Positions 2,564-49,500 of a stretch of DNA of 64,000 nt are shown here, in pieces. The notes under the pieces are model-generated. The model was not told the DNA's origin. It searched no databases and saw only the letters and a list, made by a program, of their open reading frames with translations. Where the stretch lies: the NCBI GenBank assembly GCA_051362555.1, contig CM120645.1, positions 21,886,001 to 21,950,000 of the forward strand, given 5' to 3'. Within the stretch, counting starts at the first letter, position 1, and each line of letters opens with the position of its first letter. The position numbers and the translations under genes were made by a program. Origin of the DNA: Lingula anatina (taxonomy: Eukaryota; Animalia; Brachiopoda).

Positions 2564-3073
2564 TGTACCTTGGACGCTTTATTGCCTTGTAAAGATCGCC
2601 TGGATCGATGCATATGTCACCTGATGCATATGTCACCTGTGGTTTTCTTCTTTGTTACCACCATCGCTGACATCCAGTCCGTTGGCTTTGTAACTTTAGC
2701 TATAATGCCTTGGCTTTCCATTCTCTGCATTTCTTGTCGTACCTCATCTTTGACAGCTACCAGTAGATTTCTCACACGTCTGACTACAGGAGGCACTTGG
2801 GGGTCAACTGTTATTATTTACTTCACAGGTAACTTGCCCAAACTGCCATCAAAAATCTCAGGGTACTCTGCGAACATATCTGGTGTTGTGTCTACACTGT
2901 ATACACTCTGAGCGAACTGTAATATAACTTCAGCTCCATGCTGTCTTTCAGTCCCAACAGCGTTTGAACGTTGGCATCAATCACATTAAATTTAATGTGG
3001 TGTGTTCCCCCACTGTAAACACAAGGTAAAATTGCGCTTCCTAGAGGGGTCACAACATATCCCGTGAAGCCAA

Positions 3074-3517
3074 TTAATCTGCTCTTGTCACTGCAGTGTT
3101 GGTATTTTCTGATTCTCTGAGCCTATTGAAATTTTCTAAACTCATAACATTGCGCCTGGCTCCAGTGTCGACTTTTACTTCCATGTCAGCATTATGCACC
3201 TGTAACTTTACATGTATGTCTTTCATTTGGGTGTGCGAATGCCTCGCTGTGTCAATAATGAATGAATCTTCGACATCATAGTTTGTGTTGACTTCTCTGG
3301 TTCTTTGCTGGGTTGTTTGCTTACTTTTCTTTGGTTGACTAGCTCTGCAGACAACTTGAAAATGGTTCGGTTTCCCGCATCTATGGCACGTTTTACAGTA
3401 TGCTGGACATTTTGCCTTAGCCTGACTAGTTTTACACTTACTGCATTTTGTTGTTTCTAGCTGCTTATGGTGCGTCTTTTGCGGTTTTGACTTTCTAACA
3501 ATCCTATCTCTTAACAT
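3074..3517 (-). pseudogene. Gypsy gag zinc knuckles and aspartic protease fragment
   Basis: MLRDRIV, C..C.......CPA...CHRCGKPNHFQVVC, and the protease motif VDTGA. Confidence 0.8.
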
Positions 3518-4089
3518 GTCATCTAACTGGTCATAGTCACAAGTCCGCTAGAAAAGTTTGAAACCTCTCACCTTCGTGTTGGATCCTCATGTTGAATTTG
3601 TATCTTTCCAGTATAACATTTCTCCTAGGGTTGTATATCTCATTGAATTTAGCTTTCAATACTTCTGGATCTTCATTTCATTTTCATGAAATGTGAAAGA
3701 CTCATACTTAGCGATAACTTCACTGCCAGCCAAATTTAGGAGAATGTAAGCTTTCTCCTTGTTTTCTCGTTGTAGCATGCATGGATGTAGATGTCATACT
3801 CTCGGACGAAAGTTATCCAATTTTGCTCAAGGTTCCCTTCAAATTTATGACAGCGGTACTGGCTTTCAGAGACCTTCTGCCATTTTCCTTTGTCCTTTAT
3901 TTACTCGGAATTGTCCTACAAAGAAGTTTAAAATCTCGGTTCTGACACCTTGTACGATTGTGAAGACACAAACAGACGACCATGTGTTACCGAACTACTT
4001 TAATGACCGATTTCCCTACGCGGGATGCTTAGGCATGAGTGATGGGGCTAGTGCTACTGCACTATGCATGCAGATAGTTCCATTTACAA

Positions 4090-13516: not shown

Positions 13517-14600
13517 TCACTTATAATTCATGTCAACCACAGTGCCTATGAAATTATCCATCTCAACAAAATCAGAAATGACAACATTGACGGTGGTCAG
13601 CCCACACCGCTTGGTGCACAGCCACTGATGGAGAGGTCCACACACTCTCTTGGCCACAGCATTTCTCAAATCCCCACACAGATTGGTGACCACTGTGGAG
13701 CTATCAGGTGTTAGGATGCCCTGCGTGACGTAAAAAGCACACGGGGAGCGTCCATGCCGGTAGTTCTGCTCTAAGAAGGTGATAAACTTGTTGATATCCA
13801 TTGTGTCTGGCCATGGAGACGGTATGGTGCATCCTGGCCACAGGTTTAGATGGTTTGTGACTATGTCATGATGATAAAACACCAGCACCTGAAGTCCATT
13901 CTCCCACAACATGTCCAGTGTCACGCTGTCCGTGTCCAGAAGTGGACAGAGTTTAGGACCAAAGATGTGCTGTATGAGAGATATACACTGTATGTGGTTC
14001 TCCTCATCCATGCTATAAAAGTGATTGAAGTCTAGTAGGACAATTTCTTTAGAGTGGTTGTCCAGAAACTGTGAGATGTCTTGTAGTTCCATCTCCATTT
14101 TTCTCCCGTACAGACCATGAACTGCATGAAGTTCTTGTGTGTCTTTTTTTAAAGTGACTCTTATATCAAAATATCTGAAATAAAATTGATACCAAATTAA
14201 AAGTTACTGTGGATGAATGTGCACATTTCAATTATGAGTATGGATAATTGTGTACTAATAAATAGCTGGTCATTTTGCTTTTTAAATTCTCTTTTAATCT
14301 GCATGGATGAGGGAAAAAGTGTTTAAATAATAGTTCTGATACTTAAGTGCATGAGATAAACTGTTAAGCATTATATATATATATATATATCTTTAAAAAT
14401 CCACATGGGAAAGAAAAATATTCCAAGATTCAATTAGAGGACAATCCCCCCCCCTTCCAAGGAAAGAAAATATACTCCTTTTGAATTAGCTATTTGAGGC
14501 ATTTTATACATTTCTCGAATATTTTACCAAATATAAGCAAAGTGACAGATAATGAAAAAAAAATTAAGTATTGGCTGTTAATCATAAGATTTAGGAGAGA

Positions 14601-17842: not shown

Positions 17843-19244
17843 ATGTCCCAGCCTCTGACAGACATCCAGCATTCTGAGATTTTATCCTGGATCCAACGCA
17901 ATCCTGATGCAGTGAAATGGAGTCTGCCATATTCCGTGACTTTGACCCCAGCAGAGGGAGCCCACAGAGGCTCACTGGGTATCAAGGTGGTCACCTTTAA
18001 GGTAAGAATATTATTGAATTTTTTTTTTTTTTGCATTTACTTGGACATATAAACCCCCCCCTTCCCCTTTTCTTGGCAATTTCAGGATTTTATGAAGGCC
18101 CATGTACTTTCATCTCTGAAATTTAGCTTTTTGTGATCATAACATACATAGTGACATTCATTTAATGTGTAGAATTAGACCAGAAGAATTTAAGTCATAA
18201 TCTAGAAGTTAATTGTTGTTCACACATGAAGCTTGTTTCTTTATTTAGGCCTAATGGGGTCCTGAAACTCTTACAGTTTTAGCAAAGTTGCTCAAAGGGT
18301 TAGCTGGGACGACATATAAAAATACCCAAAATGACCACTGATTTTCGTAGAAGAATACATTTCACATTACATAAATAGCATTGATAAAAATCAATGAAAT
18401 TGCTTAAAGTTATTTTCAGTAGGTTTTTTTTAAATTAAGTTTGATTAAAGCTGATAGCACTGTGTTCCAGGAGCTTTTGGCTATTGTCAGGGGCGGATTT
18501 AGGCCGTCTTCTGGGTCTTCTGGAAGACGGTCAGCTTTTTAAGTTTACACTGACGGGTATCTAATATTTTCTTTCGGAAGACGGTCAAAAATTGAAGACG
18601 AATTAACAAAGATAATTTGGAAGACTGTCAGAAAATATCTCTGGATCCGCCCCTGATTGTCCATATATTTGGTCACTCTTTTATGAAGGAAACTGGAGAA
18701 TTTTTTCTTCCTGGATGTCTACTAGTACATAATGGATTACCCTAGGATTTATAAACATGTATTTGGTATCCCAGATGAAATCCTTTTTTTTTTTTCATAC
18801 TATTGGAATTTTTGTTATTTCACTGTTAGTGTGTAAACACTTTATTCCAGAAGGTTGTTTTTTTTTTGTGTGTGTGTGTGTCATTTTGTAAAAGTGTTAT
18901 TTATCGCTGCATACACCCAGTTTGACACAGGACTTCCTTGTTTTTTGTAAGCTGCAGTCGCAGTTGTCATGATTTCAATTGATATGCAAACACCTTGATG
19001 TGGCCTGATCAATGTGTCATTTTGTATAGATTTAGATCTGTTTTTGATGTCCATGTCATTCTGAAAGGTACTCTGTCCAGGGGCTATCTGCCAAAATGAA
19101 TTTTCCTTTAAAAATTGTTCCTACTCTCAATCAGGCCATTGCTTGGCCAGTCCCTGCACTTGAATTCAATGATTCATTCCATTTTTTTAAAATAAATTTT
19201 ATTTAGTTCTGAATGACTTGACAGTCTTTGACAGTCATTAGGAT

Positions 19245-19324
<80 letters not shown>

Positions 19325-21571
19325 TTCTTGACTTTTAACGGAAAAGGTTTCATTTTCACTCCATTATGCAAGAAAATGGTGTATTGTTTTGTATTGCGGC
19401 CTTGTGTTATGTATATAGATGTTGCAAGCTGTCATGGCTACCTGAGAAGGCTGAGAAGATAAAAATGACACTAGCAATGCTTCAGATAAAAATTGAAAGG
19501 GATTTTATCGTCTTAAAGTTCTGAATTGTGAAACATAAGAATTAAGATTTTCAGGATCTATATATAACTGTGGGGAATTTTTTAATGCATGCAGAATACC
19601 TTTAAGTGTTATTTTTTTATTAAAATCTATAAATAGAATCTATGTAATGCACATCTTCCATTGTATAAAAGGAAAGATCATAAATTCAAAAAATTGTATT
19701 TGCCAAAAAATATTACTGTATTTATTCCAGCTATTACTGCGCACTAGTATGTGACCCCCTCCTTAAATAAAGATATTTATAGTGGGATTTCCTCCACTGA
19801 ATCATTATTCAGAAAGTCTTAACAATAATTATGACTCAGAACTATTTAAATGTTGTAGAGACCAATTAAATTCATTGTACAGGGTACATTGTGGTCTAAC
19901 TCAGGTGGAAGGTTGGAAGCATCTTTTTATTTAAGAAGGACTTATAGCTGGAGTTATTTAAACTTAGAAAATCACCTAGCTTCATGAACTTAAAGGGTAA
20001 GTGGTAGATATTATTCAATACTAAAACAGAATATTATTATCATTGGACATCAATGTATTTTAAAGATATATATGTCAGTCAAGCGGTTTAATGATCTCCG
20101 TTTGCCAGCGGCTAGTAGTTATAATATTTTTGTAAATTACAAGTACTGTAAAGCCACTAGCTTGTTTTATTCACTGCTTCTACATGTGTGTAGCTTTAGT
20201 TTCTGTGATCATTAAAAACTGTTTTGCACATGGCAGATTTTATGGACAGTCTTATGTACGCTTTGAATATCTAAACACTGTAATCACACTCACTGAATTT
20301 TAATTATATAATCAGCCACTGTTGAAAATCTTCCTACCAGCCTGTAGAAGAAATGGAATTCATCAGACGTAGCCTATATTGCCATTGGGCTTTTGCCATT
20401 GTGTGATATCATCCACTGCTCTTGGACCCCATTCCCATAGAACTAGATTGGTCTAGCAGTATAGACCTTAGGCTCTATTCCCATAGATTTTAGATAGATC
20501 TATCCCCGCGGGGAGTCTCACTAGATTACTTTCAGATAATCCGACTTAAATGTCCGTCCCGCCTACTACAAGCTGTAAGGGGGTAATTAACTTTCGTGTC
20601 CGCCCGGCTGACAGCTATTTAGCGTGAACCCCCAGGGAGTTAGGTCGATCTAAAGTAGGTCGATCTAATCTATGGAAATGGGGTGTTAGAGTCGTGTATT
20701 ACTGATTATTGGGTCAGTCGAGTGTAGACCTGGCTTAAAGTTGTCTAAGATTGTCAATCAAGAGCATGGAAATAATTGTTAGGTGGGATCTTAAAAACTG
20801 AGCACCTGCCACTTTAGTGCATACATGTCCTAACATTGTCAGTGGTCTTGAAAAATGGGAATTCATGCTTTAGAAATCCTCTAAATGTCGGTTGCAGTTA
20901 TGAAAAAAAGATGAATCATTGCACAATTGTATTTGGGTCATTTCAACTGAGTTGTTAGGTGCAATCTACAGTACTTCCTGGTTTTTACACTTACATATGA
21001 TCTTTATAATTGCAGCACATACCATACTATAAAACTTGAAATGGGCATTTCAGGTTGTATACAATTGAAAATTGCAAATGACAACAATTTACAGCCTCTC
21101 AAAAACTTTTCTTTTTTCTGCATTTGGTCAACAGCTACATTATTTAAAAACAAGTTGATTGAAAATAAATGTGCATAATTTTACACCTTCAAGCAATGTA
21201 ACACACCTTCATATAATTTGCCCTGTATTTCTTGGTATTCTCTGCTAAAAGTGCCAAAATAAACAATTTCTTATCTTACCAAGCTGTTTAAAAATCTGCT
21301 TCTTCTTGGCACTCACGTGTCAGCTTCCAAGTACCTTCAGCTAAAAATGATCAGCAAGCTTAACTTCCTATACCACTTGATGTCACATTGACTTCAGGCA
21401 TCCGGTTTTGGGGGAAGATATTCCTCATACTAACTTTCAGTACTCAGATGGCATGTATTCTTGTTAAATAATGCTGTCACCCTTGAAAAATCTGACAATA
21501 GCCCTGTGTGTGTACAACTTGTCCTGTCTGATCTGAATGTCATATGGTAAAAGAAGCATATTGTATACATG

Positions 21572-21618
<47 letters not shown>

Positions 21619-21797
21619 GTGTGTATGTGTGTGTATGTGTGTGTGTGACACTGTGTGTGTGTGTTGGGAGGGGAGGGGGGGATAAGTGGAAATCTGCCAA
21701 AAAAAAACAAAAAACAAAAGTGATAGACCAATTATTTAAACACCCTAAAACTGCTCAGTTTTACATTTAAAACCACAAAAGATACTAAAAAACTGGT

Positions 21798-21836
<39 letters not shown>

Positions 21837-24800
21837 CAATAAAAGTATTATAGTAGTAGGTACTAGTATAACAGAGACATGCCTCTCCATCAACCAACAG
21901 AAAGGTCAATAATTACTAACAGCAACACAATGCAAATGGAAAGAATCCATTATAACCAGATCAATGTGAAAGCCTTGATATAGTGATTAAGCTGCTCACA
22001 CTGCACAGTGCACTGTATATTTGTATTGAGCTTTTTGATAGCCAGCGATGCTGTAATTACCATACAGCATTTAGTCGTAGGAGTGATGGATTGGGGATGG
22101 ACAGGACAGAATCAGTGCTTGGAAAATTCAAGGTACCTTTTCTTATATTAATTACTGGTGGTTTAGTATTTTTTAGACAAAAATACAGTGGGACAAGTAC
22201 ACTGTATAATGCTTGCATGTATTTTATAGTTCAATGAGGGAAGTATAGATTCAAGGTATGATTTATACTGACAGAGGTGATTCTGAACCAAGTTAGGTCA
22301 TAACAACTCTACCAGATGGCTGGCTAACTTAAAGATCTCTATGGACAGTTTCACAAAAGAGCTGTAGTCAAAAGTTGGCCTTAGGTTAATGACCAAATAA
22401 TTTAAGCTTACATGCAGTGAATACAAGGTGTAATCTACATTGAAGTTGGATAGATACAGTAAGTGTTTGTCTACTACCGTAGAGAAGCAACTGTATGTTT
22501 CGTAGATTAATTGACCACTACTTGTTTTGGCCAAACAGATCCAGAACTCCCAATATAGGTGCATTATCTCTACTTTTAAGATTTATTCCTCTGTTGATGT
22601 GAAATCCAACGTAATTTTCAATCTTGGAGTTTTATTTTATGAAATCTCTCTCATCTCCCTCTCTTCGCTATGTCTCACTTTCTCTCTGTCTTTTCCCTCT
22701 CTCTGTTCTCTCTCTCTCTCTCTCACTTTCTCTCTCTCTCTCTCTCTCCCCCCTCCCAAGATGATATACTTCACTTGAGAATCCACCTGTCTAGACATTG
22801 TCTTGGAATATCATTAATTGTTAGCAGCTGGGTGGTAAACATTGCACATTATACAGATTAAAAAACAATTCTTACAAGTCATGTTAAAAATATACAAAAA
22901 CAATGTAGATTTCTCCTAAGGCTAATCAATCACTTGAAGGTTTCAGCCTACAAATCAGTTCCACTGGAATCAATGGGTCATTTGGTGTAAGTATGAACTG
23001 GGCTCATTTTATCATGATCTGATTGACTCATCATTCCAACATATGAAAAGGCTATTGGAATATGCTCTGTGAATCATATGAAACTCATGGCCTCTCTGTG
23101 TATTTTCTAGAGCACTTTTCGCCCCAAGGAGACTTATACAGTCATTCGAAGGATTGACCCTTGGTGCGACATCAGAGGCACAATTTCGCTGGACGTTGGA
23201 GATCGGATTTTGATCGTCAACAAAGAACCAGTAACAAACATGTCTATACAGAGCGTTGTCACGACTATCAAGAATTCTGTCATGTCTGGATTCCGAAGGG
23301 TTTCTCTGAGTTTGAGTAAACCCGAAGGTTTCTTACCACTGGACTCAACGGAACCGGAGGATATGAGAGTAAGGCCGTCGAATTCCTACGGCTCATTGGC
23401 CTCGGACAAGGTACCCTGTGCTTCAGTTAATATGGACTCTAGAGACTATGGATTTCAGCAGAGGGTCAGTGATTTGGACAGTGATGCTAGTTTGTCACTG
23501 TCCAGTTTGTCCTTTGACAAGGGTCAGGTGAATACGCTGACCAGTGCTAGTACGAGTAGTAGTAGCAGCTCTAGTTATTGGAGTCCAGATAGCGCTTCTG
23601 GGTATGAGAAACTGAGGTCACAGTCACTTGATCAATTGGACACTGACTCCCCAGAAAAGAGCAAAGATGGTAAAGATCAAAACGGAGATGTGCAAAATGA
23701 CAACAGGGTCATTAAAGATGGCACCAGTTCCACGTACAATAATGACACTCTCAGACCAGCAAACATACACTTGGCGCCATCTATTTCATCGTCCTTCTCT
23801 ACCTCGACCTCCAGTCACTCAGCTACATACTTTGGCTACACCGAGAAGTCACGCCAGGACTCCACGTTATCTCTGGATACAAGCAGCGGTGTTGTCAGCC
23901 CCAACAGCCTCCAGGGACAAGACAGCTTATACAGCATTGAGACAGTATTCAATTCTGCTGACTCATCCACTTCCTCTGGGAGCGAGGAGAGCACTAAGAC
24001 GACAGCTAATAAGGTAATGGTGTGTATTGCAACACATTATAATTTTTGACGTGAAAGTGGAATTGAAATCGTTTGCTCATTCATGTTTGTTGCTGTATGT
24101 TTTGCATTAACAGCAATCATTTTAAGTAACATCCAGTATTTCTGATCATGACATGCAAAAATCTTTATTTTAGGAGTGATCAATAAAATGCTGGCAGTGG
24201 CCTAGTCATCTGCTTATTTGGTTGATAAAATTTTATTTTTAGAAATTAGATATATATTCATACATATGTATCTTATAAAAATAAACATTTTGGCCCCACC
24301 TTTCATTATTAGTAGGTTGATTTTTCACAAAAGATATGATGTCGCCCTCCCTTTAGGATACTCCAACCAGGACATGAGAAGAATTAACTGCATTATCACC
24401 AAATTGGAGGCATTTCACAAGAAAATGTTTTTATATATTGCATATTTTCCTGTGACTTATCCCTAAAACTGGTTCGTCATGTTTTTCCTGTATAAGCCTC
24501 AGAGGTATATGTCTTACAGATTTATTCGGTAATTCAGATATATGTAAAAACTTAAAATTGGGACTCTAAAATAAAAAGCATGTTTGTGAATGTTTATGTT
24601 TTGATCACATTGTCTGTAGGTTTCATTGCCATAGCCAGTGCCATCCAAGACATCTATTCAGAAACACCCAAATTGTATTTTTTATTATAATATTATTATT
24701 TTATTTTAAATATTTGACTGGCTTTCTGTGGGAAAAATTAAGGCATGTTTCTTTCAAAAATTAACATGATCAGTTTTTCAAAATTATTTTATTTAATTAT

Positions 24801-27800
24801 TTATTTTTCTTTTTTTTTTTTTTGTCTCTTTTTTTTTTTTTTTTTTTGTCAACTTTTGGCGATAAGTGACAAGCGATATTTTTGTTTTACTTCAATTTCA
24901 AATTAGTGATTTTTTATGGGGGACGGGGGGTTAGAAAGCAGGTTTTCTTTGGAAAATCAGTATGTCATTGATTGCATTATATTTCACAAAAAAAAAAAAA
25001 AAAAAAAAAAAATCATTACCTTTTTTTTTTTTCATATAGTTTGGTGATGTTCACCCCACAAGTGGCAAACTGTAATTATAGTTTTGCTTCAATTCTGCTG
25101 ATTGGATTTGATTTACTTCTTAAAAAGGCAGATTTCCTGCTAAAACAAAGTTTTTTTTTTCTTTTTTGCCAAGACGTCTATTCCTGGTTGATGTCTATAT
25201 AATATTTGCCATTACGTTGCATAACAACTGAGTTTCTGTAGTGCTAATTAACTGTGTTAATTGGTCTGTGTATAGTGTCCAGATGTTTGCCCTACCTGCG
25301 GCTCTGAGCTGAAACCAACAGAAGAAGACAAAGTGGACCTTGCTTCCCTCACTTTGGAAAATCCTTTGAAAATTGTGTGGGATGATAAGCCAAGGGTAGT
25401 GAACCTGAAGAAAACCTCGGGGCCCACCTCAGGCAAGTTGGGGTTCACTTTCAAGACCAAGCTAGTCAAGGTAAGAACAGTATTTTTTTAAGCAAATATA
25501 TTTGGGTTGAAGGCTTCCACAATTTTGACTTCAATATAATAGGAATGGGATTCTAAGCTTTCAGTTGTTGATTTAAACAATTTACTTTTTTTTTGTAAAA
25601 TACATTGAGTTTTCTTTTGTGTTTTGAGTAAATGACCCTACAAAGTTATTTCCCAGTTAGGATAAAAAAATGAAACAAAAAAAGGATCTGTAGTAAGATC
25701 AATATTCTTGCTCTCTTGATCCTTTTATGGTTTACATGATATATGTATATTATAAGCATCTTTTAACCAAATCTCCATATTGAATTTCACAGGACAAGAA
25801 TAGCAACAGGACAATAGAAGTCTATGCCCTGGTGGAGACAGTACAAGAAGGTGGGGCCGCCGCGGGACTGCTCCAGCGCGGAGACTGCATACTCTCTGTG
25901 AATGGAGAGGCTATCAGCTGCTCCAGCCAAGAGGTAGTTTTTCTGTCTATGTGAGGATATATTTGTTAAGAATATTTTTAATGGTAAATGGAATATAAGT
26001 CAGTTGCCATGTTCATACTTGCAGAATATTAATCGGTGGGCTAGCTGTAATACAGTCAGGGTTTTTTTTTTTTTTTTTTTTTGTATAACATTTTCATTGT
26101 ATGTTTATGAATGTCCTTGTTTTTCAAGCATTTTTCTGCCATTTTCTCTATACATTTGCAGCGCTGCCTTAATTTTGAATTTTTTTAATTATCATTTTTG
26201 AAATAATTAATAATTTCTTTATGAACGATCACACCTCATGAATGTGTTAAACTATGATATATATTCAAATGCACTTTTTTTAAAGTCATCAAATTTATAT
26301 TATATTTTGCAAGGAATAGTAATACATATAAATTATTTCATGATATGTATTTTTAACTTCTAATGAATCAACTAATAGACTAAGTCTATATTTTATGTTT
26401 TAGGACATGAGTGGCATCCATCATGTTCAACGCATCAAAAAACTTACAGAATCGGGTGATGACGACAATGTCAAACTGGTAATACAAAGACCAGCAAGGG
26501 TCAAGGTCACCAAGAGAGGCCATGGGTCAAAGGAGAGGGGTCAAAGGTCAAAAGAGTCAACCCCTGAGAGGGACAGAGGTTGTACTTACACTGGTCAGTC
26601 TTCTAATCATTTAAACTGCAGGGCCAGTTCGCTGACCGCGAGAGGAGTAGGTGGGCCTGGGCAGTTAGAAAGTCCCACTGCTGTAAGTTCGGGAAGTTAT
26701 GAACTGGAAAGTTTAGAGAGCAGTTTGCACAGTGAAGAAGGAAGGTGTAGTGAATTCTGGACTGATAATATGATGCCACAGTCAAGAAAAGGTTTAATGA
26801 ATTCCCCTCGTCCCAGAAAGGAAGCAATTCTGACAAAGGGGAGGTTGGTAAAGATTCACAGAAGACAGAGATCAGACCCATTACGATTCTTCACTTCTTG
26901 CAGTTTTTACAGCAAAGGCAGACGACAAACAGTCTCAGAGACGAGCAGCATTTATTCAGTCAAACGTAAGGATAGTTCAACAAAAACAAAATTATTTATC
27001 AAGAAAGTGATCACCAAGGCGATCAGAGATGACATGGAGATATCTCCACACTTAAGATTAATCGTGTGTGGAAATCCTAGCGATTCCGTGGCCAGAATGG
27101 TGCTAGGGGTGAACAGAGATGTGGCACCCAGTGTGAGGCACCAGCTCTACAATCAGTACGATATCGCCATTCCACGGAGCGGGGCACCACTGCGCATGCA
27201 TTGCATGTCAGAAGACACGACAAAAGAGTTTGACAATCAGTACCTTGCAGCGCACATGGCTGAAAAGTTAGAGCAGCGTCCAGCTATTGCTGACCACCTT
27301 GCTATAATTGGACAGAAGCTAACACACTTGAAGTGGGTAGAAAGGGGTATCCCTGTAAAAAATATCGGACAATGTCTTTTGGAGGAGAAGCCAAAGCTTG
27401 TGGCTCACGTGAAAGTGATGTCAATGAAACAAGACAGTAGGTTAGCCAGGCTGACTTCCCACATAGTATTCTGTAAGCATGCTCTGTATCTGCTGACATT
27501 CTGTGTTGAGAAGTATGTGAAAAATCCAGAGGATGTACTGTGCAGTTTGCAGAATGATCTCGTCAAAATAAGAACATATGCAGGATCAGTGGTGCCTGTA
27601 TTTCTTGTAGCCACCGTCAGCAAAGATACCAGCATATCCAAGGACTTGCTCCTTAAAATGGGGAGTAACCTTGAACAGCATTTCAGAAGGGCGTTTTACA
27701 GTCACCTGGTCTACAACAAGGAAAGCGATCTACCATTGTTCACACTGTGCGACAATACAGAACAGAGCCCCTCCGCCATCTTGTCCGACATATCACAACT

Positions 27801-30800
27801 GCGAGATAGGATCTTCACCCTGTGTATCGCCCAGCCATTTATGAAAGTGAAATATCCTCTGGGTGCTGTTGTGGTCAGAAATAGCCTGTATTCCGAGGGT
27901 GGAGAACTTGTGCGGACTTTAAACCAGTTACAGTCTGCAGTGAAGGACGTGTGGCAGAAATGTACAGAAAAAGATTTCCAAATGGTACTGGAATATCTGC
28001 ACAACTCAGGAGACATTATTGTGAAAAGTGAGTCATTATCATTATCTATGACCTTAGATCTAGATTTTTTTTTCTTTTTTTTTATTTTTTTGTACTCTCG
28101 CATGTACTGGCAGTAATGTACAGTAGAAACAAATGCCAATTTCATCATAATATGTTAACTGCAAGATTATCAATATCATAGCTATTTACAAAAAGTTGGC
28201 AATCTATCAGAATGGAAGAGTGCAGAAAATTGTAAAGCTTCTTGCCACGAGTGAATGTTTTGAGTCATCCAGTAGAATAAATTTATGGTAAAACTTACGT
28301 TGGCAAGTGACTGATGTTGCAGTCGCAATCTGAGACCGTTCACTATGTAAAGACCAGGATAGACATGAAACTTGCTGTCAAGCACATTTTTGCCATTTGT
28401 GCCTGCAGTTATGTATAATAAAATATAATTCTTACATACAAGTTCAGCAACTCAAAAACCCATGATGAACATTAATTTTATTTTCAGACTTCTATCCCAC
28501 ACCTCTTTGCCATAGTCCTATATTGGACATGTTTGTCCTCATCAATCAGCATCAACTCGTCCCCATTATCGACAAGCTGCTGACGATTCCACCCAAGAGC
28601 GAGCAGTCTCCCCAGCTGCGTAAAACGTGGCAGCAACTTGATAACACTGGGATTGTTCCAGGGGAATTTCTGCACAAGGCAATTTTCTGCAACTCAGCAG
28701 ATTTTTCAGAGCATTTGGCATTTCTTGAACTGATGCATTTTATTTTTGGAACCACCGAGCTGTCAACTTCAGGTGCAAAGCAGAAGATGTATTGTATACC
28801 CGCACACCTAGCTCAGTTTGCAGAACCCCATCTTCCAGCCAGCCACGAATTCCAGGAAATATACCTGGATTTCAATGGCCATCTACCTCAACCGGTCTTC
28901 TTGGTACTTCTCCTGCACTTTAGGGAAGCTTGTTTGAAAGGTCAAGGCTACTGCAAAGGTCAAGTTCAAGGTCTTCCTCAAGGTCAAGGTTGCATCCAGA
29001 GCGTGGTGTCTGGGATGTTTATTGGAGGTGGCTTCCAGTACAGCATACATTTTGACAGGCTGTATAGTTTAGCCAGGATATTTGTCAGGTAAATGAATGT
29101 GTTAATTGTGTTACTGTTAAAAGGGCAGACGGAATTGATAACTTAATTTACTAAGCCAGTCCCTATTTTTTTTGTTCGTGCATTGGTCTAATGGAATATA
29201 CATGTATAGAATTCAACTTTTTTATAGATGCTCTAAATACAATACATTTCAGTGAAGAAGAAATGCAGTAATCATGGTTTTGGTGTAATTGAATATAGTG
29301 GAATCCATAACACTTGGACTTAAATAGATGATACAGATGATGCCCAAATTATGCATTTCATAAGTGTGTTTGTGTATATATATATATATAAATGTAAATT
29401 ATATTTTATTATTATTAATTCAAATTAGGCCAACAATGAAGACGGTACAGCTTCCAGACTTCCTTGATTATCTGAGGAAACTTCTGTGTGACTTCACCTC
29501 CTTGCACCCTGTGGTGGATCTCAGCTTCCAGTGTGGTCCTCTCTGCCCTGCAGCAGAGTGTAGCATGAAGACCCACAGTGATGCCCCTCATGTTCTGGAC
29601 ATTTTCCACCAGTCAGAAGTTCCTATTTTCTGTGGTGCGGAGCAGGTGGACTGCCATAAAGATGTGAAGATGTGGCTGCGCGGGAGTGAAGTTCTTGGCA
29701 TGTCTTTGGCTGTAAGTGATAAGTTTTGTTAATTTGAGATTAATTGGAGGAGAGTTTTTAATGACTCAGAGTTTAAAAGCAGGCAATTTCAGCTCTTTTA
29801 AAACCATATGAAGTTGATCAGCTGTGCAGTTCTTATGTGGAGTGATTATGGTGTTATACACTGTAGGGCCCTTTGCTGAGAGGGTTAACTCCCATACCAG
29901 AAATACAAGTAAATTACTGACAAATAAATATGATATGATAATAAGTTTATTTTAATGTTTATTCCCAATAATATATTTACCTGACGTCAGTATTTCAGCA
30001 CCCTGAGCTTCAGAGATAACTTGACACTAACCTCTTCACTATAGCCTATCTTCATCGTGTCAAGTTACCTCTGACCACATTCGATTGCCCCCGCAGCCCG
30101 CCAATCAAATTTAAAGCCTGCACTCAATGACTCATTGAACGATCTAGCCAATGAACGCTAACGAGTCAAAGCGCGCTTTGTTCAAATCCGGACCAATCAA
30201 AGATAAGGCTGAATATCAGGGACTTGCCGTAACCTGTGGGCAGCACGCAAAATACATCATCCCTCAGTAGATAATGATGCAGGGCCTCAAACTGCTCTGG
30301 TTTCAATTCCGATATACTCATATTTTGCAAAGAATCAAGAGATAACTTAACACATTATTTTACGTAGTCACTCGTAGGAGCACGACATGCTTTCTTTGTG
30401 TACGGTTATGCACTCGGAACTACTCGGATGTCTCCGCACTCGACAATAACTTTGTTGTTAGTATGAGCTTGCGGAATCAGCCGAGGATTACTGATTGACG
30501 GTCAACCAATCAGCGTTTTCACCAAACTTTGGTGAAAAATTTTGAAACTTGGATTCGATTGGCTTATATAAACTAGGTCAAACTATTTTCGTCAGAGGTA
30601 ACTTGACACGATGAAGATAGGCTATTGTGAAGAGGTTAGTGTCAGGTTATCTCTGAAGCTCAGGGTGTATTTCAGTTGCTGTGATTTTAATACACTTCTT
30701 TTCTTTTTCTTCTTCTTTTCTTCTTCTTGTTCCTATTATTATTGTATTTATTGTTATTTTTAACAATTAGAATATATATAATTGTATATTCAGAGCCCAG

Positions 30801-31811
30801 CCAGCCTGGTCAGCACGACCCCCTTTGGAAAGAAGGTGGTCACCCTGGACACCAGGATCCGAGACATGCCTTATGACCTGTGGTCAGTGATATGTAATAG
30901 GTTAAGGGTCCCTGTCCTGGGTGATAGAGACTGGAAAGGAGTGGCAGGTAAGTATGGGGGGGGGAGGGGGGGGGCACAGCTACCATATCACAGGGCCCTA
31001 GATCTGTATTGCTATAAGGGAGACTTGTTATGAGTCCTTGTAATGGGAATAGTCCAAGATACCACCTTATAGGGCCCTAGATCTGTATTACTATAACTTT
31101 GACCTTGTTTGATAATGCTGGATATGGGAACAGTCCAAGATACCACCTTATAGGGCCCTAGATCTGTATTACTATAACTTAGACCTTGTTTGATAATGCT
31201 GGGTATGGGAACAGTCCAAGATACCACCTTATAGTGCCCTAGATCTGTATTACTATAACTTTGACCTTGTTTGATAATGCTGGGTAAGGGCACAGTCCAA
31301 GGTGCATTCAGAACAGATGATCCGAGGACTAAATATGGCTGACCACACTAAAAAGCAAGCTGTCCTAATTCCCTCCACACACACACCATGAAACGGATTA
31401 AATCTCATTTCCGAGTTTTTATTGCATACATTGTACATTAAAGCCTGCTTATCTCATTTATCTATCTATAAAACTGTTCCCTTTTTTATTAGTTTTTATG
31501 TAACCTCCTAATGAATAAATTTAAATATCAAATGACAGACATGAAGTTTTCTCCAGTCAGATAATTACAGAGTACATCAATATTCTCTTTTAGGTGAACT
31601 TGGCAAAACTCCAATGGAAGTCTCATTGTACGAGCAGCAGCGTGATCCGTGCCGCATGCTCCTCACCGACTGGGGCAATACTACCCATGACACTGTTCAG
31701 AATCTTATTGATATCCTTCAGCTGCCACAGATGGAGAGATATGATGTGGTGGAAGACATATTTGGAATTATTAATGGACAGGAAAAAGCAGGCATGAGTG
31801 TGAAGAAATGA
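17843..31811 (+). CDS. Multidomain protein: PDZ - Ser-rich linker - PDZ - degenerate ROC/COR (Roco-like) - C-terminal death domain; 9 coding exons, about 1425 aa
   Basis: Exons 17843-18001, 23111-24013, 25276-25470, 25793-25933, 26404-28027, 28488-29088, 29429-29711, 30794-30947 and 31594-31811 are all GT-AG and phase-compatible (4278 nt, no internal stop). PDZ1: GSLGIKV...LDVGDRILIVN. PDZ2: GKLGFTF...VQEGGAAAGLLQRGDCILSVNG. ROC/COR-like: HALYLLTF, PVFLVAT, LEYLHNSGDI, YCIPAHL, FNGHLPQPVF. Death-like: DWKGVAGELG...LLTDW...TVQNLIDILQ..MERYDVV. Confidence 0.88.
18488..18655. mobile_element. MITE, CAGGGGCGGAT family, copy 1, 5-bp TSD
   Basis: TIR CAGGGGCGGAT / ATCCGCCCCTG flanked by ATTGT on both sides (18483-18487, 18656-18660); homologous to 45615-45784. 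Confidence 0.85.
20471..20685. mobile_element. PIF/Harbinger-type MITE, copy 2
   Basis: TTA TSD (20468-20470 / 20686-20688); ends GGCTCTATTCCCATAG / CTATGGAAATGGGGTG; inverted copy of 16523-16736. A further TIR-like end lies at about 20425. Confidence 0.8.
21575..21664. repeat. Interrupted (TG)n microsatellite
   Basis: Read directly from the sequence. Confidence 0.95.
29999..30667. mobile_element. Non-autonomous DNA transposon with 77-bp TIRs and an 8-bp TSD, intronic
   Basis: TIR 29999-30075 (CACCCTGAGCTTCAGAGATAAC...) versus 30591-30667 with about 2 mismatches; TSD TATTTCAG at 29991-29998 and 30668-30675. Confidence 0.92.
30981..31300. repeat. Minisatellite, about 81-bp unit, about 4 copies, in the last intron of the PDZ-Roco gene
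   Basis: The marker AG(G/T)GCCCTAGATCTGTATT recurs at 30992, 31071, 31152 and 31233. Confidence 0.92.
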
Positions 31812-32309
31812 GGTTTTTAAAAGATTGTTGAAACCAGTCGCTTTTTTTTTCTTTTTTTTTTTTTTGTCAGAATGACCTGACAAAGATCAAGTGATTTGAT
31901 CAGGATTTTGGCAATTAACTAAAGACAGAAAAATGTTGAAGTTATCTGAAACTGCCAAAATACACCCATTGATATTACAGAATAAACTGATATTAAGACA
32001 CCTGAAAGCACTTATCATGTCAAGCAATGCAGTATTCTGTACCACACAAGTTTGAGTGGTACTAACATGTAATTCTGCAATGAGAAGGGGGGGTGTACTC
32101 TGTTTTTACAAGACCCAATTTATCAATTAAACTGGTGTAGTTGAGTGCCAGGTGATTTTTATAATAATAGTCAGTATATTAAGTTGCCAAAGTCTCAAGC
32201 AGAAACAGTCCAGAAATTCATGTCTCTGGATGTGAAAAGGCCCTAATATTTGCAATATTATGTGACTGTGCAAAAAGTGTGCATGTTAATTGCATATTTG
32301 TGTACACAG

Positions 32310-32456
32310 CAGGTCTGTAGCCAGCGACGACCTTTTAATTAGCCAGAAAAGGTGGCCTTTGGGTAAAGTGTTATCTAAGTATATGAAGGTTTCATGGTAA
32401 AAGGTCCGCTTTTTCAGAAAAAGAACCCCCTTTTGAAATTGCTGGCTATGGGCCTG
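32310..32456. mobile_element. Short MITE, CAGGCCCGTAGCCAG family, copy 1
   Basis: Ends CAGGTCTGTAGCCAGC / GCTGGCTATGGGCCTG; the right part matches 56275-56340 in reverse complement. Confidence 0.7.
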
Positions 32457-35400
32457 ATATAGGAAAGATGTTACCCTGTCAGAATTACTGCTGAAAGAGG
32501 CATTTATGGAATGAAGGCAGATAGAGCTAATCTGACACTCTTTAGATTAGTGCAGTAACAGTTACATCAGCATTTTTTTTTTTTTTTTTTAGACCTAAAT
32601 GGATGGATTGGTGCATTTAATATTTAGCATTGAAATATCTCATTGTGTAGCTTAATCTGTTTTGGTGTTAAATTAACCCAGCATGATGTTGGTAGATTGT
32701 GAAATGACTGTATGCACTGATTGTTTGGAGAAAATAAGGCTTTAGATGTGACAGTCAAAAGAATAAAAAAGCATTTTGCTATTGGATGAAACTGCCCTTT
32801 GATGTTTCAGCTGAAAAAAAAGATGAAATATATGGTGTAAGACTTTTAAGTGAGTTAAATGTTTTGGCTTACAATTTTGATTTGTTTGGAAAAGTCTTTA
32901 TATGTAATATGTATATAATATATAGTACATACATTTTGGAGCTACGCATTAGTATTCAGTGTTAGCTTAGTACGTACATTGTGTTAAAAATGAATGTTTT
33001 GGTTCTTCTTATTGTGATATATGTTATAAATGCATTTAATGTGAGATTTAACTTACATGTAGTATGTGTATGATAAAAGACAGAAAAGTAATGAGATTTT
33101 GAAAGCAATCACAAATGGCAAGTCTGCAATAAGAACTGAGGGAGGATAAGTTCACTGTTGTTGTTGTTGTTGCATAAAAATCATGAAAGTTTACCATATC
33201 ATGATTTCTTTCAGATATTTGCATGATGCTATATGTACATTTTGTATGTATGTTCTAATGATTAATGTAATTGTCTATTAAGTATTCTAGAATTATCCAC
33301 GATCAAGATTTTGTATGATTTTTTTAAAAACTTGGACTGTTCCCATAATTGTACAAATTTTTTCAGCCATGTTTCAGTCCATCCTGCATTTTTTCTTTCA
33401 AAGTCAAATGTTCCTGGATGCTTTCATTTTCATGATTTTGTTTTTGTAGTAAGTCGAATAGAGGTTCTACTTCTCTGAGGCGGCTTTAAGTTTTAGCTGT
33501 TACTGTAATTGATTTTCTCATTTAAACTATAATGAGACTGCAATGCCCAATTTTTCTTTATTTTGGTATGTGTATATATATAAACATCCACAGTGCCATA
33601 TGACTGTCCTTTTGAAAGAAGATAAATTTGTATTTTTGTTGACATATTTTTTGTTGTTCTCCCACCCCTTTCCCACTCAAGTAGGATTTTGTTTTCTGCA
33701 TATGCCTGACTTTAAAAGCAGGGTTTTCTTTAAGTTTTTAAAAAATGTCTAACGAGGCAAACTTTTTCGGTTTATATCATTTTAAAAAAGTGATTTTTGT
33801 CATATTCAGGGTTTGTAGTTATGCTTTTCTTAAATTTTCTTGATTTCACAATAAATTGATTTCAGTTATAATAGTTTTTTATTTTATTATATGAAGCACC
33901 TTTGGGTTAATTTAATTGTGAATTTGATATTGAAATATTATTAAAGGTGATACTACTGACAGCAACTGTTGTTTAAAGAAAAAGTGAGTGTGGTTTCACA
34001 GTAAGGCATACAAACAACTTCCAATAGAAACTATATGAATTGACTCAAATGAAGTCGGCGTGCCAAGGGATGTACTGAATTTATCACTTGATCAGCCGTA
34101 AAAGAGCTTCAAAACTGAACCGTCTTGAAAATTTTGGTTGTAAATTGACCTACTTATCTGACCAACATGTACTTGTCTACCCCAGTTTTTTTTTTTTTCC
34201 AGCAAGGAAAGTAAGCAGACAATACCTGTTCAAATATCATTTTGCCTGATAATAAAATAATTAGTGATATCCTGATATTTGGGACAGAAAACAGTACAAA
34301 AATGTTTAAGTTTCAGTATAATTGTGATTCAGACATAATTTTCGTCTCACTGAATAGTGTAACCGATTTTAATTGTTTTTAACTACTAAATCACACTTTT
34401 GGAACTCGTCAGGGGAAAATAAGATTTATTAATTGTCCTTAAAACCCAAGAACTAAAAGAAATTATATTTACAACTGGAAATTAAAGATCTTGCCATTGG
34501 ATTGTCTTGTAATATGCACCTCTATTAAAGAAACTTATAGGATTTAAAAATATAAATTTAAACAAATTTTAACAAATTAAAAAAAAATAGTTTTACTCTC
34601 CATACCTTATCTATGTAAGTCTAATATAATGAGAGCCATTTAAAATTTTAAAAGAAACAATTTCCACCAAATTCCACTTTCAATTAATGTTTTTCTCCTT
34701 ATGCTAATCTGGTAATATTTATATTAAAACACATTAACGTACGTTGTTTGAATACAATAATAACAATAATAACCCATAGCACAGAATACGACTTTGGAAC
34801 ATAATCTGACTTCCACAAATAGAACATCTTTGGCATGAAAAGCTATTATAATATGATGTTTGTCCTATATTATTCCCACTGTGGTTAGAATGCAACATTT
34901 TATATCCAGCACAATTCATCCAAAGTTCTGTGATCCATTTATTACATATAACCCACATTTAAACATAAATAAATTAAATGATCTGTGAACAACTACGTAA
35001 CAGTAGCTTTTAGTAGACACATATACTGAAGGACACAGTGTACTATGAAAGAAAATATCTTTTTGTTTACTGGACTGCATCCAGCCATTTTAAGGGAAAG
35101 TTGCACAAAAAATCCATCTTAACTGTAAGGTTATACCTATAAAAAAATGTACTTAGCTGTCTTGTTTTGTTGTAATGTAACTTTGGGCCATCAACTCGTA
35201 CATTTTCAACAGTTTTGGTGCATAAGTTAGCATAAACAATGATTTAAAGCTTTTCTTGACAATGCCTTGAATAAACAAATATTGTTAGAAACACTGTCAA
35301 CATGGTACAATGCAAACATTCATGCAACAGAACAACTTCCAACAACAAGACTTTGGATATTACATACTAATAAACAACATAATACATAAAAAATAATTAA

Positions 35401-43500: not shown

Positions 43501-45438
43501 AAGCCATCAGAAAAAAACAATTCTCTGCACGTCTCTCAATGTAAAAAAAAATAAATAAATAAGAGACCTTGCACCATTCAGTATGCTCGCGTACATCTCC
43601 CTTACCTCATTCCACCAAAGCAGACAAACTGCAACAATTATCACAGCAATTCCAACTAATATTGCCACTAAACTTCGCCCTATCCTCTCACAGAAGTTAG
43701 GGTTGTTTCTATACGAAACCCTGGTGTGGCTGTCTCCGCCTAGATCCATATTGTGCATTCCTGGATGATGTGGGAACTGAAAATTAACAGAAAGTTGAAG
43801 ATTATAAGACACAAAGACGCTACAATATTTACTGTACTTACATGTAATATGTTAGAATACAAATTATATTGTAATTATATATATACTTGTAGCTAGACCA
43901 TGCCTGTTGCCAGCATATGAAAAGTTTCTTTCTCTGGAAAAGTGGACATATTACAGCTAAAATTGATCCAACTTGAAAGAAGACATAAAACCGAGATATA
44001 ATTTTGACCGACAAGGAGAACCTTTTCAGGTTGAAAGCTAGGCAGTGTCATCAAATGAAAAAAAAAGTGTAGGCAGTATCTGTAAGTATTTGACAAACAT
44101 TGTATGTTACATTGTATCATGTCTTCATAATGCATGAACATGCCCCCCCCCCCCCAACCCTCACTATCTTGAGTCCATTTTTGGCATGTACCTATTTTGG
44201 CATGACACATGGAAGTGGTGGAAACCCATATACATGTCATGTCAATATGATTCATGCATAAATAAAGACCCAAATTCCTGTAATATATGCCCTTGCTGAC
44301 CTTTAAATTAAATTCTTAATTTCTTCCAATAAGTATATAATTTTATATATAATTTTACTGTCGACAGTGGTGGTTATTTTCTATCCTGGAAGTATATGTA
44401 TAGATATTAGTCCTACAGGTAGTATATATATATATATTATAATGAAGTTAAACTGGTGATGTGTAGTATAAATTTAGATTAAGCTGCACTTACTGATCTC
44501 TACTATATGTGCATGTACTACACAAGTACTAGTACTTACAGTGCAGTAACACGTACAAACTGGAATTGCCAGATCGAGGAAAGAATTAAGTTTAAACTTA
44601 AGCTTATCCAGAGAAATGTTATATAATGCTGTTTAACAGAAATGTGCCACTTACAAGTACTACAGGGACCCTGACACTTGAAAAAAATTGCACTGCCTTC
44701 AGGTACAGTCACTATGCCCATGAACAAAACAGAGGAGGTATTTGTATAGGGTCGTGGGAGGGGGGCTGGGGGTAAGGGGCTGAAGAAACCCAAAATGATG
44801 CAGTACAGTATTTTTCGACTATTTTCATAAATATTATTAAGTAATACAAGTACAGGAACTACAGTGTACGTGGTGTGCCAAACAGTCTGTATATCCTATT
44901 GAAATACCTGTAGTTTGAAAAACCTACTTTGATGCCACCCCCTCCCCCCCCTCCCAAACACAATCTCCATTGTAGAGGACTACTGTACATGTAGTATACT
45001 TAAGTCGTTAAGTATACCCAAGCTTTTAGATACACATACCAATCAAGATGACGCGAGCTACAAGATTTGAAGTTAAAGTATGTACTTCCATTGGCTTGTA
45101 AACATGTACATGTATGTCAGCGGCTCACAAAATCCTAAGATTACATTTGATCTTTTCTGAACAATTTACACCCGTGTTAAGAAATAAGTTGAAAATAAAT
45201 AAGCAAATCATGCTTGTGCTGCACACCAGTAAATAATAAATATGGCAGCAATATTGAAAGTGATCGAATCAGACCAATTTCGTTCACGTACTATACAGTA
45301 CCTGTTTTTGTACAACTCTTACCGATAGACTGACCGATTTCTCTTCTTAGAGACTATGGCTGATGCGTAGCTTTTAAGTAAGACAGTAAGTACACGTGTG
45401 CCTACGCTAATGGGAATACTCACGTCACGTCTATACAT
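37081..45438 (-). CDS. TMEM43: Transmembrane protein 43 (LUMA), 12 exons, 410 aa
   Basis: Exons 45438-45424, 43776-43606, 42746-42612, 41866-41772, 41320-41271, 40899-40830, 40613-40543, 39986-39868, 39586-39515, 39381-39280, 38290-38173 and 37295-37081 total 1233 nt with consistent phases. Motifs [83 protein letters not shown] and GWIRYRP all align with human TMEM43 as I recall it. The 15-nt first exon is the least certain. Confidence 0.96.
37345..37792. mobile_element. Harbinger-like MITE in the last TMEM43 intron
   Basis: Ends GGATCTATTTCACAAAAGAA / TTCTTTTGTGAAATCAGCCC flanked by CTG/CTG, with an internal degenerate duplication (about 37409-37515 versus 37571-37665). Confidence 0.6.
38928..39049. 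repeat. Tandem duplication of about 58-64 bp
   Basis: AAACCAAATCAAATGACTGCAATTTTTTACATTC...GGTACTGCAATATAACCTT occurs twice in succession. Confidence 0.85.
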
Positions 45439-46540: not shown

Positions 46541-49500
46541 GATTCAACTAGAATAGGCTACACTAAACCTTATATTAAACTAACTATTATTTAGGGGGAT
46601 ATGAAAACTGCATCATCAGTTAATCTAGGTTTTATTCAGCATGGATGCAATTTTCATATCCCTAGCTTTAAAACAATCATAAAGAAAATTAGTTGTGCAT
46701 TTTGCAATATCAAAATCATTACATTGCAGTACAGTAATAAAAAGGTCACTGATGGACTCAGGGGCTGCACTGCCCAGTATATCTTTAACCTGGTTAAGGA
46801 ATATGGCTCTTAGTGGAGCATAAGAGGGGCATATCATCATAAAATGGAACTCATCTTCAACTGACCCCATGTTGCACACCGTGCATAGCCTTTTCTCTAT
46901 GGGTATTTTAGGATTCATGTGTCTCCCCTTTTCAATTGCCAAATTGTGGGCACTTATCCTGAATTTGCAAAGGAATGTAGATTTGGGTTTGTGGATTAAC
47001 TGTGTGTATATTTCTCTTTTAAAATCTTTTTTGAAGGTACTGTAGGTACGTAATTTTTTGCCCTCCGTGTTCAGGGATGCTAGGTGAGATTTAAAGGCCG
47101 AACTATAAGAGATTTGGATAAGCGGTTTTATTATGGAAGAGAGTGCGGTCATGGATATTTTAAAAGGGTCCTCCCAAATGTCAGGGCGTCCAATGAGCGC
47201 CAGTGTATTTTTAATGCCGGTTGACCAGGTTGAGGTGTTAAGTCTGTTTAAATTTTCATTTTCATGAAGTGCATGAGTAACTAAGGAGGTGGTGTCATGG
47301 TGCTTTTTATATTGGAGGCTGTGCCAGTATTTGAGGGCCAGTGTGTGGGCAGTGGTCAGTATTGGGAAGCTGCCCAGTTCTCCGCGGACAGCATGTGAGG
47401 GAGATTTTCGGTTAACGCCTAGGATAGTTTTGCAGGCCTTGAGATGTAAGGTTTCAATGGAAAGTTTGTCACAAATTAGGAAGTAGCTGTCTTTACTTGA
47501 GTTTTTGACAAAGTATGGTGCCCAAACTTCAGAGCCATAGGTAAGAATGGGAGCTATGAGTGAGTCAAAAAGTTTCATGGAAATGGGCACTGGGCTGGTG
47601 AATAATTTATTGCGGATTTTGAAAAATGCTTTCCCCCCTTTTGATTTGAGTATTTCAAGGGATTTGGTGAAACTTCCGGATGGAGTAAAGACAAGTCCTA
47701 AATAGCAGTATTCACTACAGATTTCTAGAGGTATATCGCCAAACTTGAAAATTTGTTTCTGGATTTTGTGGCCAGATTTATTGAATATCATGACTTTTGT
47801 TTTAGTGATGTTCACTAGTAGCTTCCATTTTTTGCAGTAGGCCTGAAGTTGATTTATTGCGGTTTGTAAACCTGCACTGCTTTCCGACATAATTACTAGA
47901 TCGTCTGCATATAATAGGCAATTTAATTTTTGATTATTCAGAGACACTGGGTCACATCTGTCGTTAAAAATTGAGGGCAGGTCACTTATGAAGAGATTAA
48001 AGAGGAGTGGACTGAGATTACAGCCTTGCTTAACACCAACAGAGGACGAGAGACTATTTGTTATGCTATTTCTGCATTTGACGGCAAAACGCACAGATGA
48101 GTACATATTACGAAGGGTTCTTAGAAAGTTCCCATTGATGCCTGCCCTTGTCAGTTTGTAGAACAGGGCGTTTCGCCACACGGTATCGAAAGCAGAGGAA
48201 AAGTCAACAAAGCAAACAAAGAGGTTGGATTTAGAGGCCCTTTTAACATATTTGTCTATGAGGGTTTTTAATACTAAAATATGGTCACTGGTGCGGCTTC
48301 CTTTTTTAAAACCAATTTGATTTGGGGGTATGATATTGTGTTTTTCTACATATGTTGTGAGTCTGTTGTTCAGGATTAGACAGAATAGTTTACAGATATT
48401 GCTAGTGACAGCAATTCCTCTATAGTTATTTGGATCTGTTTTGTCACCCTTTTTGTGTATAACTGTTAGAAAGCTTGTTCTCCAAAGTGTAGGGAATGTT
48501 CCATTTGTGAGAATGTGGTTGAAGAGAATACACAGGGGGGCTGCCAGTCTGTGAATACCCTCTTTGATCATTTCATTAGGTATGCCATCTGGGCCAGAGG
48601 ATTTATTATTCTTAAGTTTTGTAGAAGCCTTTTTTATTTCATTTACAGTAAGTCGGTAGTCAAGTTCATTGAAAGTACCGTTTTTAATACCATTAAAGAA
48701 TTCATTAATTAGGGATTCAAATTTGGGGTCCTCATGTTGTAGACTTCTATTCATGAGATTATTAAAATGTTCCCACCATAAATGGGGTGGTATAGGGTTA
48801 CAGTTACTTTTTTTTTCATTCTCACATAGCTGGTCATAGAGGTTCCAAAATGTTTTGGGGTCAGAATTCTCGAGGGTTTCAATTTTGTGGAAAATGTGGT
48901 TACGAAAGTCGTTTCTTTTTTTATTTAGTAGTTTTGAGTATTGTTTTTTTTGCCTATTGTATTCTTGTATGAGTTGTTGATTTTGGGGATTTTTTCGAAT
49001 TTGTCTACTTAGAGATTTGAGTGATTTGGATACTTCCTTGCAGTTGGTGTCAAACCATTTTTTATTCATTTTACGTTTTTTAGCTTTCTTATTATTGTTC
49101 TTTTTAGTGAAACCTGCTTTAGAGGCCAGATTAGTAAGGAGTGTATAGAAGTTGTTGGTGAGTTGGTCAATGTCCATGTCCTTATTAAGTGAATATGAAG
49201 ATATGAATTTATTTATTTCTGTCTGGCTATCTGGAGTTTCTAGTGAGGCTGACCAAATTTGTTTTATGATATTTGACCATTGATAGTTGCTGGGGAGGTC
49301 ATGTGTTTGGTCTTGTGGCAGACTGTGGTCGGGGTAGTGGCACATACCAGTTTTTAGTGAGCAGGAAATCATGCAGTGGATGGACAGTGGAGTTAGAGAG
49401 TGTACCCTGAAATATTCCAGGTTACACAATATAGAACTATTACACAGTAGATAATCAATCACACTTGGGCTTCCCCTATGGCTGAAACAGGTAAAATTAC

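Follow-up and report, generated by a model that had tools for sequence, protein, structure and literature searches.

A 64,000-nucleotide stretch of the genome of the brachiopod Lingula anatina (contig CM120645.1 of assembly GCA_051362555.1, forward-strand positions 21,886,001 to 21,950,000; hereafter the window, in whose own numbering positions are given) contains a nine-exon gene whose predicted product joins two PDZ domains to a Roc-COR unit and a C-terminal death domain. The Roc domain of this protein and of its relatives lacks nucleotide motifs, and as judged from sequence and modelled fold (a G fold without such motifs) it is a pseudo-GTPase. The best reading is an old, undescribed, nucleotide-independent adaptor derived from a Roco protein, in which the conserved “dead switch” is a more notable feature than the two PDZ domains. 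Neither the family-wide loss of the nucleotide motifs nor a single PDZ domain as the conserved unit had been part of a preliminary description of the window.

That description had proposed nine phase-compatible exons forming one open reading frame (ORF) of about 1425 residues, which proved correct: when joined they give 4278 nt on the forward strand (17843-31811), or 1425 residues plus a stop, with no internal stop codon. Splice sites were placed from sequence alone, with AG/GT ends at all eight introns. The product aligns end-to-end with the L. anatina RefSeq protein XP_013402390.2 (LOC106168013; P0001, 1427 residues), first retrieved by a search with exon 5: 1405 of 1427 columns are identical, and the single gap, of two residues, lies within exon 5 and not at a junction. 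RNA reads had been named as a check on the junctions. Those from four runs bearing the L. anatina species label, mapped to 22900-33000 with a threshold of three reads per junction, support five of the seven junctions in that interval, or five of eight for the whole gene (exons 2-3, 4 reads; 4-5, 10; 5-6, 3; 6-7, 11; 8-9, 5). The junctions of exons 3-4 and 7-8 were not listed at this threshold, at low depth; that of exons 1-2 lies outside the mapped stretch and is taken from the RefSeq model only.

The preliminary description also allowed that the PDZ and COR-death exons might belong to separate transcripts. This is contradicted by exon 5, which holds both the end of the second PDZ domain (PDZ2) and the whole Roc-like domain, so that these cannot come from separate transcripts. 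It is extremely improbable that the ORF is an artefact fusing neighboring genes, or a decaying pseudogene: three of the eight junctions have no reads, and a complete transcript is beyond the reach of short reads, but besides the shared exon there are two RefSeq models with the same 1427-residue product, echinoderm proteins that keep the same domain order in one chain, and read variants that are mostly synonymous. The second RefSeq locus (LOC106163420; P0019), on another contig, encodes a near-identical protein and is either a haplotype copy or a recent duplicate; no second copy of the family was found within the window.

Pfam gives no match to Roc, COR, kinase, LRR (leucine-rich repeat) or ankyrin on P0001, even at E 10, and none to Roc or COR on the separate exons. 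The ROC-COR-like block that had been suggested for the central region is nevertheless upheld by fold and profile comparisons. An AlphaFold model of P0001 residues 662-1427, from a 23-row alignment including five active Rocs, has pLDDT 76 and pTM 0.74 and includes COR-B; the top 31 rows listed by Foldseek are all LRRK1, Chlorobium tepidum Roco or the Parkinson's protein LRRK2 (best E 1.3e-13), and VIA-align gives Z 20.7 with LRRK1 (root mean square deviation 6.3 over 476 aligned residues) and Z 20.4 with Methanosarcina barkeri RocCOR (3.9 over 306). As a control against bias from the active rows, a starfish orthologue (P0007) was modelled on 20 aligned rows that all belong to the family, active Rocs being excluded: it has the same top structural matches (best E 9e-16). 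ESM Atlas features place the central region at 0.95 to Roc/COR-A clusters, and hhalign of the family profile against an active Roc (P0017) gives a probability of 98.1 and E 7.6e-14. By model and profile, then, the central region is a Roc domain followed by COR, in the tandem fold of Roco proteins. Against PDB sequences the family profile matched only death and PDZ domains; phmmer with exon 5 found only weak NrdR matches (best E 0.039), rejected as chance.

The nucleotide motifs of Roc are G1-G5, and the DxxG region is the most conserved part of Roco proteins (PMC6337361). Neither the P-loop GxxxxGK[ST] nor a DFxG-type G3 occurs in the Roc span of any of the 16 aligned family rows, which include near-duplicate pairs and amount to some 12-13 independent sequences; the P-loop is also absent from all five further full-length proteins. 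Active-type proteins, aligned alongside, have DFAG in seven of seven and the P-loop in three of seven (the others start past it or lack it in the model), and the G4 motif GTH is present in 6/6 active rows vs. 0/10 family rows. G5 is DNT-like and possibly partly kept in Lingula, with insertions breaking it in most relatives; G2, a motif that varies among Rocos, had no assignable position. With G1, G3 and G4 lost in all aligned relatives, the domain is probably not a GTP (guanosine triphosphate) switch, nor can it be classed as a Roco GTPase. That it does not bind GTP at all is suggested by the motif loss together with the short turn between strand beta1 and helix alpha1 in the models.

Pseudo-GTPases, defined as having a G fold that lacks such motifs, include some that still bind nucleotide (PMC5593906). 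One possibility is that this Roc has an atypical mode of binding nucleotide or another small ligand, and that it behaves as a switch that is slow or always “on”. The existence of class ii and iii pseudo-GTPases (PMC5593906) allows for this, as do the retention of the first G1 glycine in 15 of the 16 family rows, a G4 threonine in several rows and the G5-like DN in Lingula. We consider it improbable: at the canonical places every row is without lysine, Ser/Thr and DxxG, no invariant substitute residue was found in G1 or G3 among the family rows, and the beta1-alpha1 loop is only two residues long in the Lingula model and three in the starfish model. In 15 of 16 rows the segment before helix alpha1 is, by eye, about three residues shorter than in the two active P-loops alongside. 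A parallel may be found in the class i pseudo-GTPases (p190RhoGAP pG1 and pG2, CENP-M, the dynein light intermediate chain), which likewise have a G fold with degraded motifs. The phosphate site of p190RhoGAP pG1 is blocked by helix alpha1 (PMC5593906), and in both the Lingula and starfish models this helix appears to start where the phosphate loop belongs. The class i proteins differ in being of unrelated origin and context, and non-binding has been measured for pG1, whereas we infer it for Lingula.

At the N-terminal end, Pfam recognizes PDZ in two stretches of P0001 (E 7e-13), with PDZ2 above the cut-off. Both copies are predicted to have the PDZ fold with a carboxylate-binding loop, GSLGI in PDZ1 and GKLGF in PDZ2. 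The “tandem” PDZ arrangement previously proposed is borne out as to number and not as to adjacency, the two being about 250 residues apart, with a serine-rich linker between. Each has a PDxxxW-type extension like that before the single echinoderm PDZ, which suggests that both Lingula copies derive from the same module. They are 29% identical to one another and 23-33% identical to the echinoderm domains; a recent duplication was rejected, since PDZ1 and PDZ2 are no closer mutually than to echinoderm PDZs, and the low identity implies that the duplication is old. The conserved unit is thus the one PDZ seen in echinoderms, a second being seen only in Lingula. Directly before PDZ2, a CPDVCPTC motif (25276-25299) has weak zinc-ribbon Pfam matches (E 0.01-0.03), and starfish orthologues have CxxC at a similar place.

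The death domain is recognized by Pfam on P0001 (E 2.5e-8). As had been suggested, it resembles those of the MyD88/IRAK/UNC5 kind: by structure the closest are IRAK4 (Z 13.4), p75NTR (13.2) and MyD88 (13.0), and by profile the nearest solved domains are those of p75NTR, IRAK4, MyD88, NRADD and UNC5B (E 2.6e-10 to 1e-3). These are only 21-26% identical to the Lingula domain and nearly tied in score, and hence do not point to any one partner or pathway. At the COR-B end, C1247, C1252, H1262 and C1276 (~29544-29633) are invariant in 9/9 full-length rows; the residue pattern makes a zinc site possible.

HMMER over 1.84 billion representatives gave 18 matches at E <= 0.001: P0001 itself, one repeat protein (P0005, removed before all alignments), four with a Pfam Roc match and 12 with a degenerate Roc. 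Every relative with a species name is an echinoderm (Acanthaster, Asterias, Patiria, Anneissia, Antedon, Diadema, Lytechinus, Strongylocentrotus), and the databases call these proteins “uncharacterized” or “PDZ domain-containing”. A search for orthologues, which the preliminary description had proposed, thus finds the same architecture, with a single PDZ, in starfish, sea urchins and crinoids. Among nine longer relatives (Pfam, E 0.01), seven have PDZ, in one stretch each, and eight have Death; four of the nine, and the fragment P0002, have weak COR-A matches below the Pfam cut-off. Word-index searches, which are insensitive and no proof of absence elsewhere, found only P0001 with exon 5 and nothing with P0012; with the family alignment they found five proteins and missed most of its own rows. 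A search of metagenome contigs with P0012 gave no match. Exon 5 ends (28027) nine residues past the histidine of the COR-A HxxGxI motif, and all 12 fragment-like relatives examined, active and pseudo (P0002, P0003, P0006, P0009, P0011, P0012, P0015, P0017, P0018, P0026, P0046, P0049), have glycine at this position and stop 2-42 residues on. These ends would fit read-through into a shared intron, to judge by the protein sequences.

Could the Lingula and echinoderm proteins be convergent, PDZ domains having been fused separately to decayed Roco genes in lineage-specific immune expansions? In invertebrates, TIR, death, LRR and caspase domains do become shuffled together with Roc-COR: ROCO domain shuffling in Aplysia includes ROCO in TLR-like (Toll-like receptor) and MyD88-like proteins (PMC9334734), and a ROC-caspase fusion is described in Owenia (PMC11463336). 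The distribution of the family is patchy, and degenerate sequences may group by long-branch attraction. Convergence is all the same highly improbable given what Lingula and the echinoderms share: the shortened G1 spacing, a KIRTYA motif, the PDxxxW extension, the C/C/H/C site and the domain order. Against a Roc-COR profile from which Lingula was left out, P0001 reaches 277 bits and active Rocs 63-108; on this echinoderm-based profile, P0001 is thus more than 160 bits ahead of every active Roc tested.

Several observations weigh against reading these proteins as an ancient family with a dead switch. Degraded-motif pseudo-GTPases such as Rnd and RGK can still bind or hydrolyse nucleotide (PMC5593906), and Lingula may retain the G5-like DNT. 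Among the 18 HMMER matches, no name is that of a mollusc, annelid, arthropod or chordate. The unnamed fragments P0012 (59 bits) and P0015 (50) score no better than active Rocs on the profile, which makes their membership less sure. In a 19-row tree, 14 pseudo rows fall on one side of a branch and five active rows on the other with support 100/100, but the tree is unrooted, its outgroup is these five rows, without DAPK1, LRRK or MFHAS1, and it has three long branches. For PDZ1 by itself the Pfam match is weak (E 0.0015 for the part in exon 2, below the curated cut-off); support comes from ESM Atlas features (0.93, with 10/10 best matches in the PDZ family) and from a profile of nine echinoderm orthologue PDZ modules (30.4 bits, the best of 200 shuffles scoring 2.8). 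Among the read variants listed, which bear on selection, 11 of 18 in Roc-COR are synonymous (expected proportion 0.218, p 3.6e-4) and two of six in the linker, but the test covers 28 exonic variants among the best 40 of 166 and does not model transition bias.

The Roc domain of DAPK1 binds GTP. In domain order the C-terminal half of DAPK1 resembles the Lingula protein, with Roc-COR, then a C-terminal death domain, and no LRR (PMC6337361); the Lingula protein differs in having PDZ instead of kinase and ankyrin, and in its lost Roc motifs. It shares with the DAPK1 group the death domain after Roc-COR and lacks the N-terminal kinase; of the LRRK and MFHAS1 groups it has neither the LRR before Roc-COR nor, as in LRRK, the kinase after it (Pfam, E 10). 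Lacking both kinase and LRR, it belongs to neither DAPK1 nor LRRK. The order PDZ-PDZ-Roc/COR-death, without a kinase, is thus as originally described, the outer domains being found by Pfam and Roc-COR by the models. LRRK1, LRRK2 and the C. tepidum and M. barkeri Rocos are the best structural matches over the whole Roc-COR, at only 9-14% identity; these solved Rocos differ from the Lingula protein, which has no LRR, kinase or WD40 and has lost the G motifs.

The nearest sequence relatives with intact G3 are kinase-less invertebrate Roc-COR-death proteins, with which the ROCO-TIR and ROCO-MyD88-like proteins of Aplysia are grouped. For one of these relatives, amphioxus P0016, the alignment extends across Roc, COR-A and COR-B and takes in the CP...H end, and an Atlas cluster at 0.92 (mollusc clusters being among the relatives) has Roc at 92%, Death at 63% and COR-A at 62%. 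They differ from the family in keeping DFAG and GTH, and no PDZ was seen on P0016. Such proteins raise the possibility that the family consists of pseudoenzyme regulators, each of which would use COR to pair with a paralogue having an active Roc-COR(-death) unit and would tune or localize the GTP cycle of that paralogue, with PDZ as an “address tag”. This is somewhat supported by the similar COR-B end of the active proteins (P0016) and by the Roc-COR interface residues (YP, LHxxGxI), which are among the few near-invariant columns in the family. We nonetheless regard it as unlikely, the family being distant from the sampled active Rocs (a branch of 1.83 changes per column).

The dead-switch adaptor, which we think reasonably probable, would act independently of nucleotide, its PDZ domains docking on the tails of membrane proteins, as expected from their domain family, and its C-terminus recruiting death-domain partners. 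The pseudo-Roc/COR unit would be kept as a rigid platform, probably pairing via COR-B as solved Roco proteins do. PDZ-driven clustering at a receptor, rather than GTP loading, would gather the death domains, which might then nucleate an assembly of the p75NTR, IRAK or MyD88 type. As to origin, a PDZ may have been added, and the switch lost, in a kinase-less Roc-COR-death ancestor resembling amphioxus P0016 before the brachiopod/echinoderm split, the Lingula lineage later acquiring a second copy of the PDZ module. The full proposal, of an ancient animal pseudo-Roco family, lost or unrecognizable in model animals, in which a GTPase-dead Roc-COR is a permanent platform linking PDZ-bound receptors to death-domain assemblies, is more tentative, with somewhat less than an even chance of being right. 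An immune role is plausible by analogy with the ROCO domains in TLR-like and MyD88-like proteins of Aplysia; the closest death domains also include those of neuronal receptors, and the evidence favors immune signaling no more than neuronal or developmental signaling.

Positions within the gene are collected in Table 1. Reads extend at low depth past the stop codon (31812-33000), where AATAAA occurs at 31981 and 32762; a short repeat near 32408-32456 attracts many foreign RNA reads. Intron 7 contains an element (29999-30667) resembling a miniature inverted-repeat transposable element, whose terminal inverted repeats of 92 nt are 91% complementary and separated by 485 nt, and whose deep, loose-ended RNA coverage probably stems from other copies; intron 8 contains an 81-bp tandem repeat (30992-31301; 3.9 copies, 90% matches). 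Elsewhere in the window are pieces of a long terminal repeat retrotransposon pol gene (218-3547, reverse strand), with reverse transcriptase, RNase H and integrase matches in separate ORFs, and an uninterrupted ORF of 1135 residues of the long interspersed nuclear element type (46625-50032, reverse), with endonuclease and reverse transcriptase. An exon-like ORF of 228 residues (13517-14203, reverse), from an upstream gene pointing away from the Roco gene, has no Pfam or PDB match; we take it to resemble a phosphatidylinositol-specific phospholipase C X-domain protein, a label that neither search confirmed. Another (43507-43851, reverse), with one hydrophobic stretch and only an unrelated weak Pfam match, presumably resembles the TMEM43 N-terminus, again unconfirmed by Pfam. 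An open frame of 250 residues at 59850-60602 (forward) has no Pfam match.

Table 1. Exons, domains and motif remnants of the Lingula gene, in window coordinates.
Feature	Position	Strand	Content or basis
Splice acceptor upstream of exon 1 coding part	ends 17813	+	sequence
Exon 1 coding part, residues 1-53	17843-18001	+	start codon, PDZ1 first half, PDxxxW extension, GSLGI loop
Exon 2, residues 54-354	23111-24013	+	PDZ1 second half (to ~23326), then serine-rich linker
Exon 3, residues 355-419	25276-25470	+	CPDVCPTC motif, PDZ2 first part, GKLGF loop
Exon 4, residues 420-466	25793-25933	+	PDZ2 core; Pfam PDZ_6 E 2e-7
Exon 5, residues 467-1008	26404-28027	+	PDZ2 end (to ~26493), basic linker, pseudo-Roc, COR-A start
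Pseudo-Roc domain, whole, within exon 5	~27025-27831	+	fold model and alignment
G1/P-loop remnant GNPSDSV	27070-27090	+	no GK[ST]
G3 remnant SMKQD replacing DFAG	27421-27435	+	alignment
G4 remnant ATV replacing GTH	27610-27618	+	alignment
Exon 6, residues 1008-1208	28488-29088	+	remaining COR-A, most of COR-B
Exon 7, residues 1208-1302	29429-29711	+	COR-B end with invariant C/C/H/C
Exon 8, residues 1303-1354	30794-30947	+	death domain, first part
Exon 9, residues 1354-1425 and stop	31594-31811	+	death domain remainder; Pfam Death E 1e-7

The preliminary description knew of no characterized Roco of this type, and in keeping with this no animal Roco with PDZ domains, or with a dead GTPase, was found described in the open literature (supplementary architecture lists and most subscription journals being outside its scope), nor any mention there of six family locus identifiers. 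For LRRK2 and DAPK1 there is continuing debate on whether Roc-COR acts as a classical switch, as a G protein activated by dimerization or as a sensor of GTP (PMC6337361). That Roc-COR has apparently been kept without its nucleotide motifs since before the protostome/deuterostome split suggests a structural role independent of nucleotide, and the family offers a natural “switch-off” construct for tests of structure and dimerization. The finding also adds a predicted PDZ-to-death-domain adaptor whose Roc-COR is invisible to Pfam and which could be tested in sea urchin and starfish embryos. If the proposal is true, these proteins would serve as a naturally occurring control that shows how Roc-COR acts when nucleotide plays no part.

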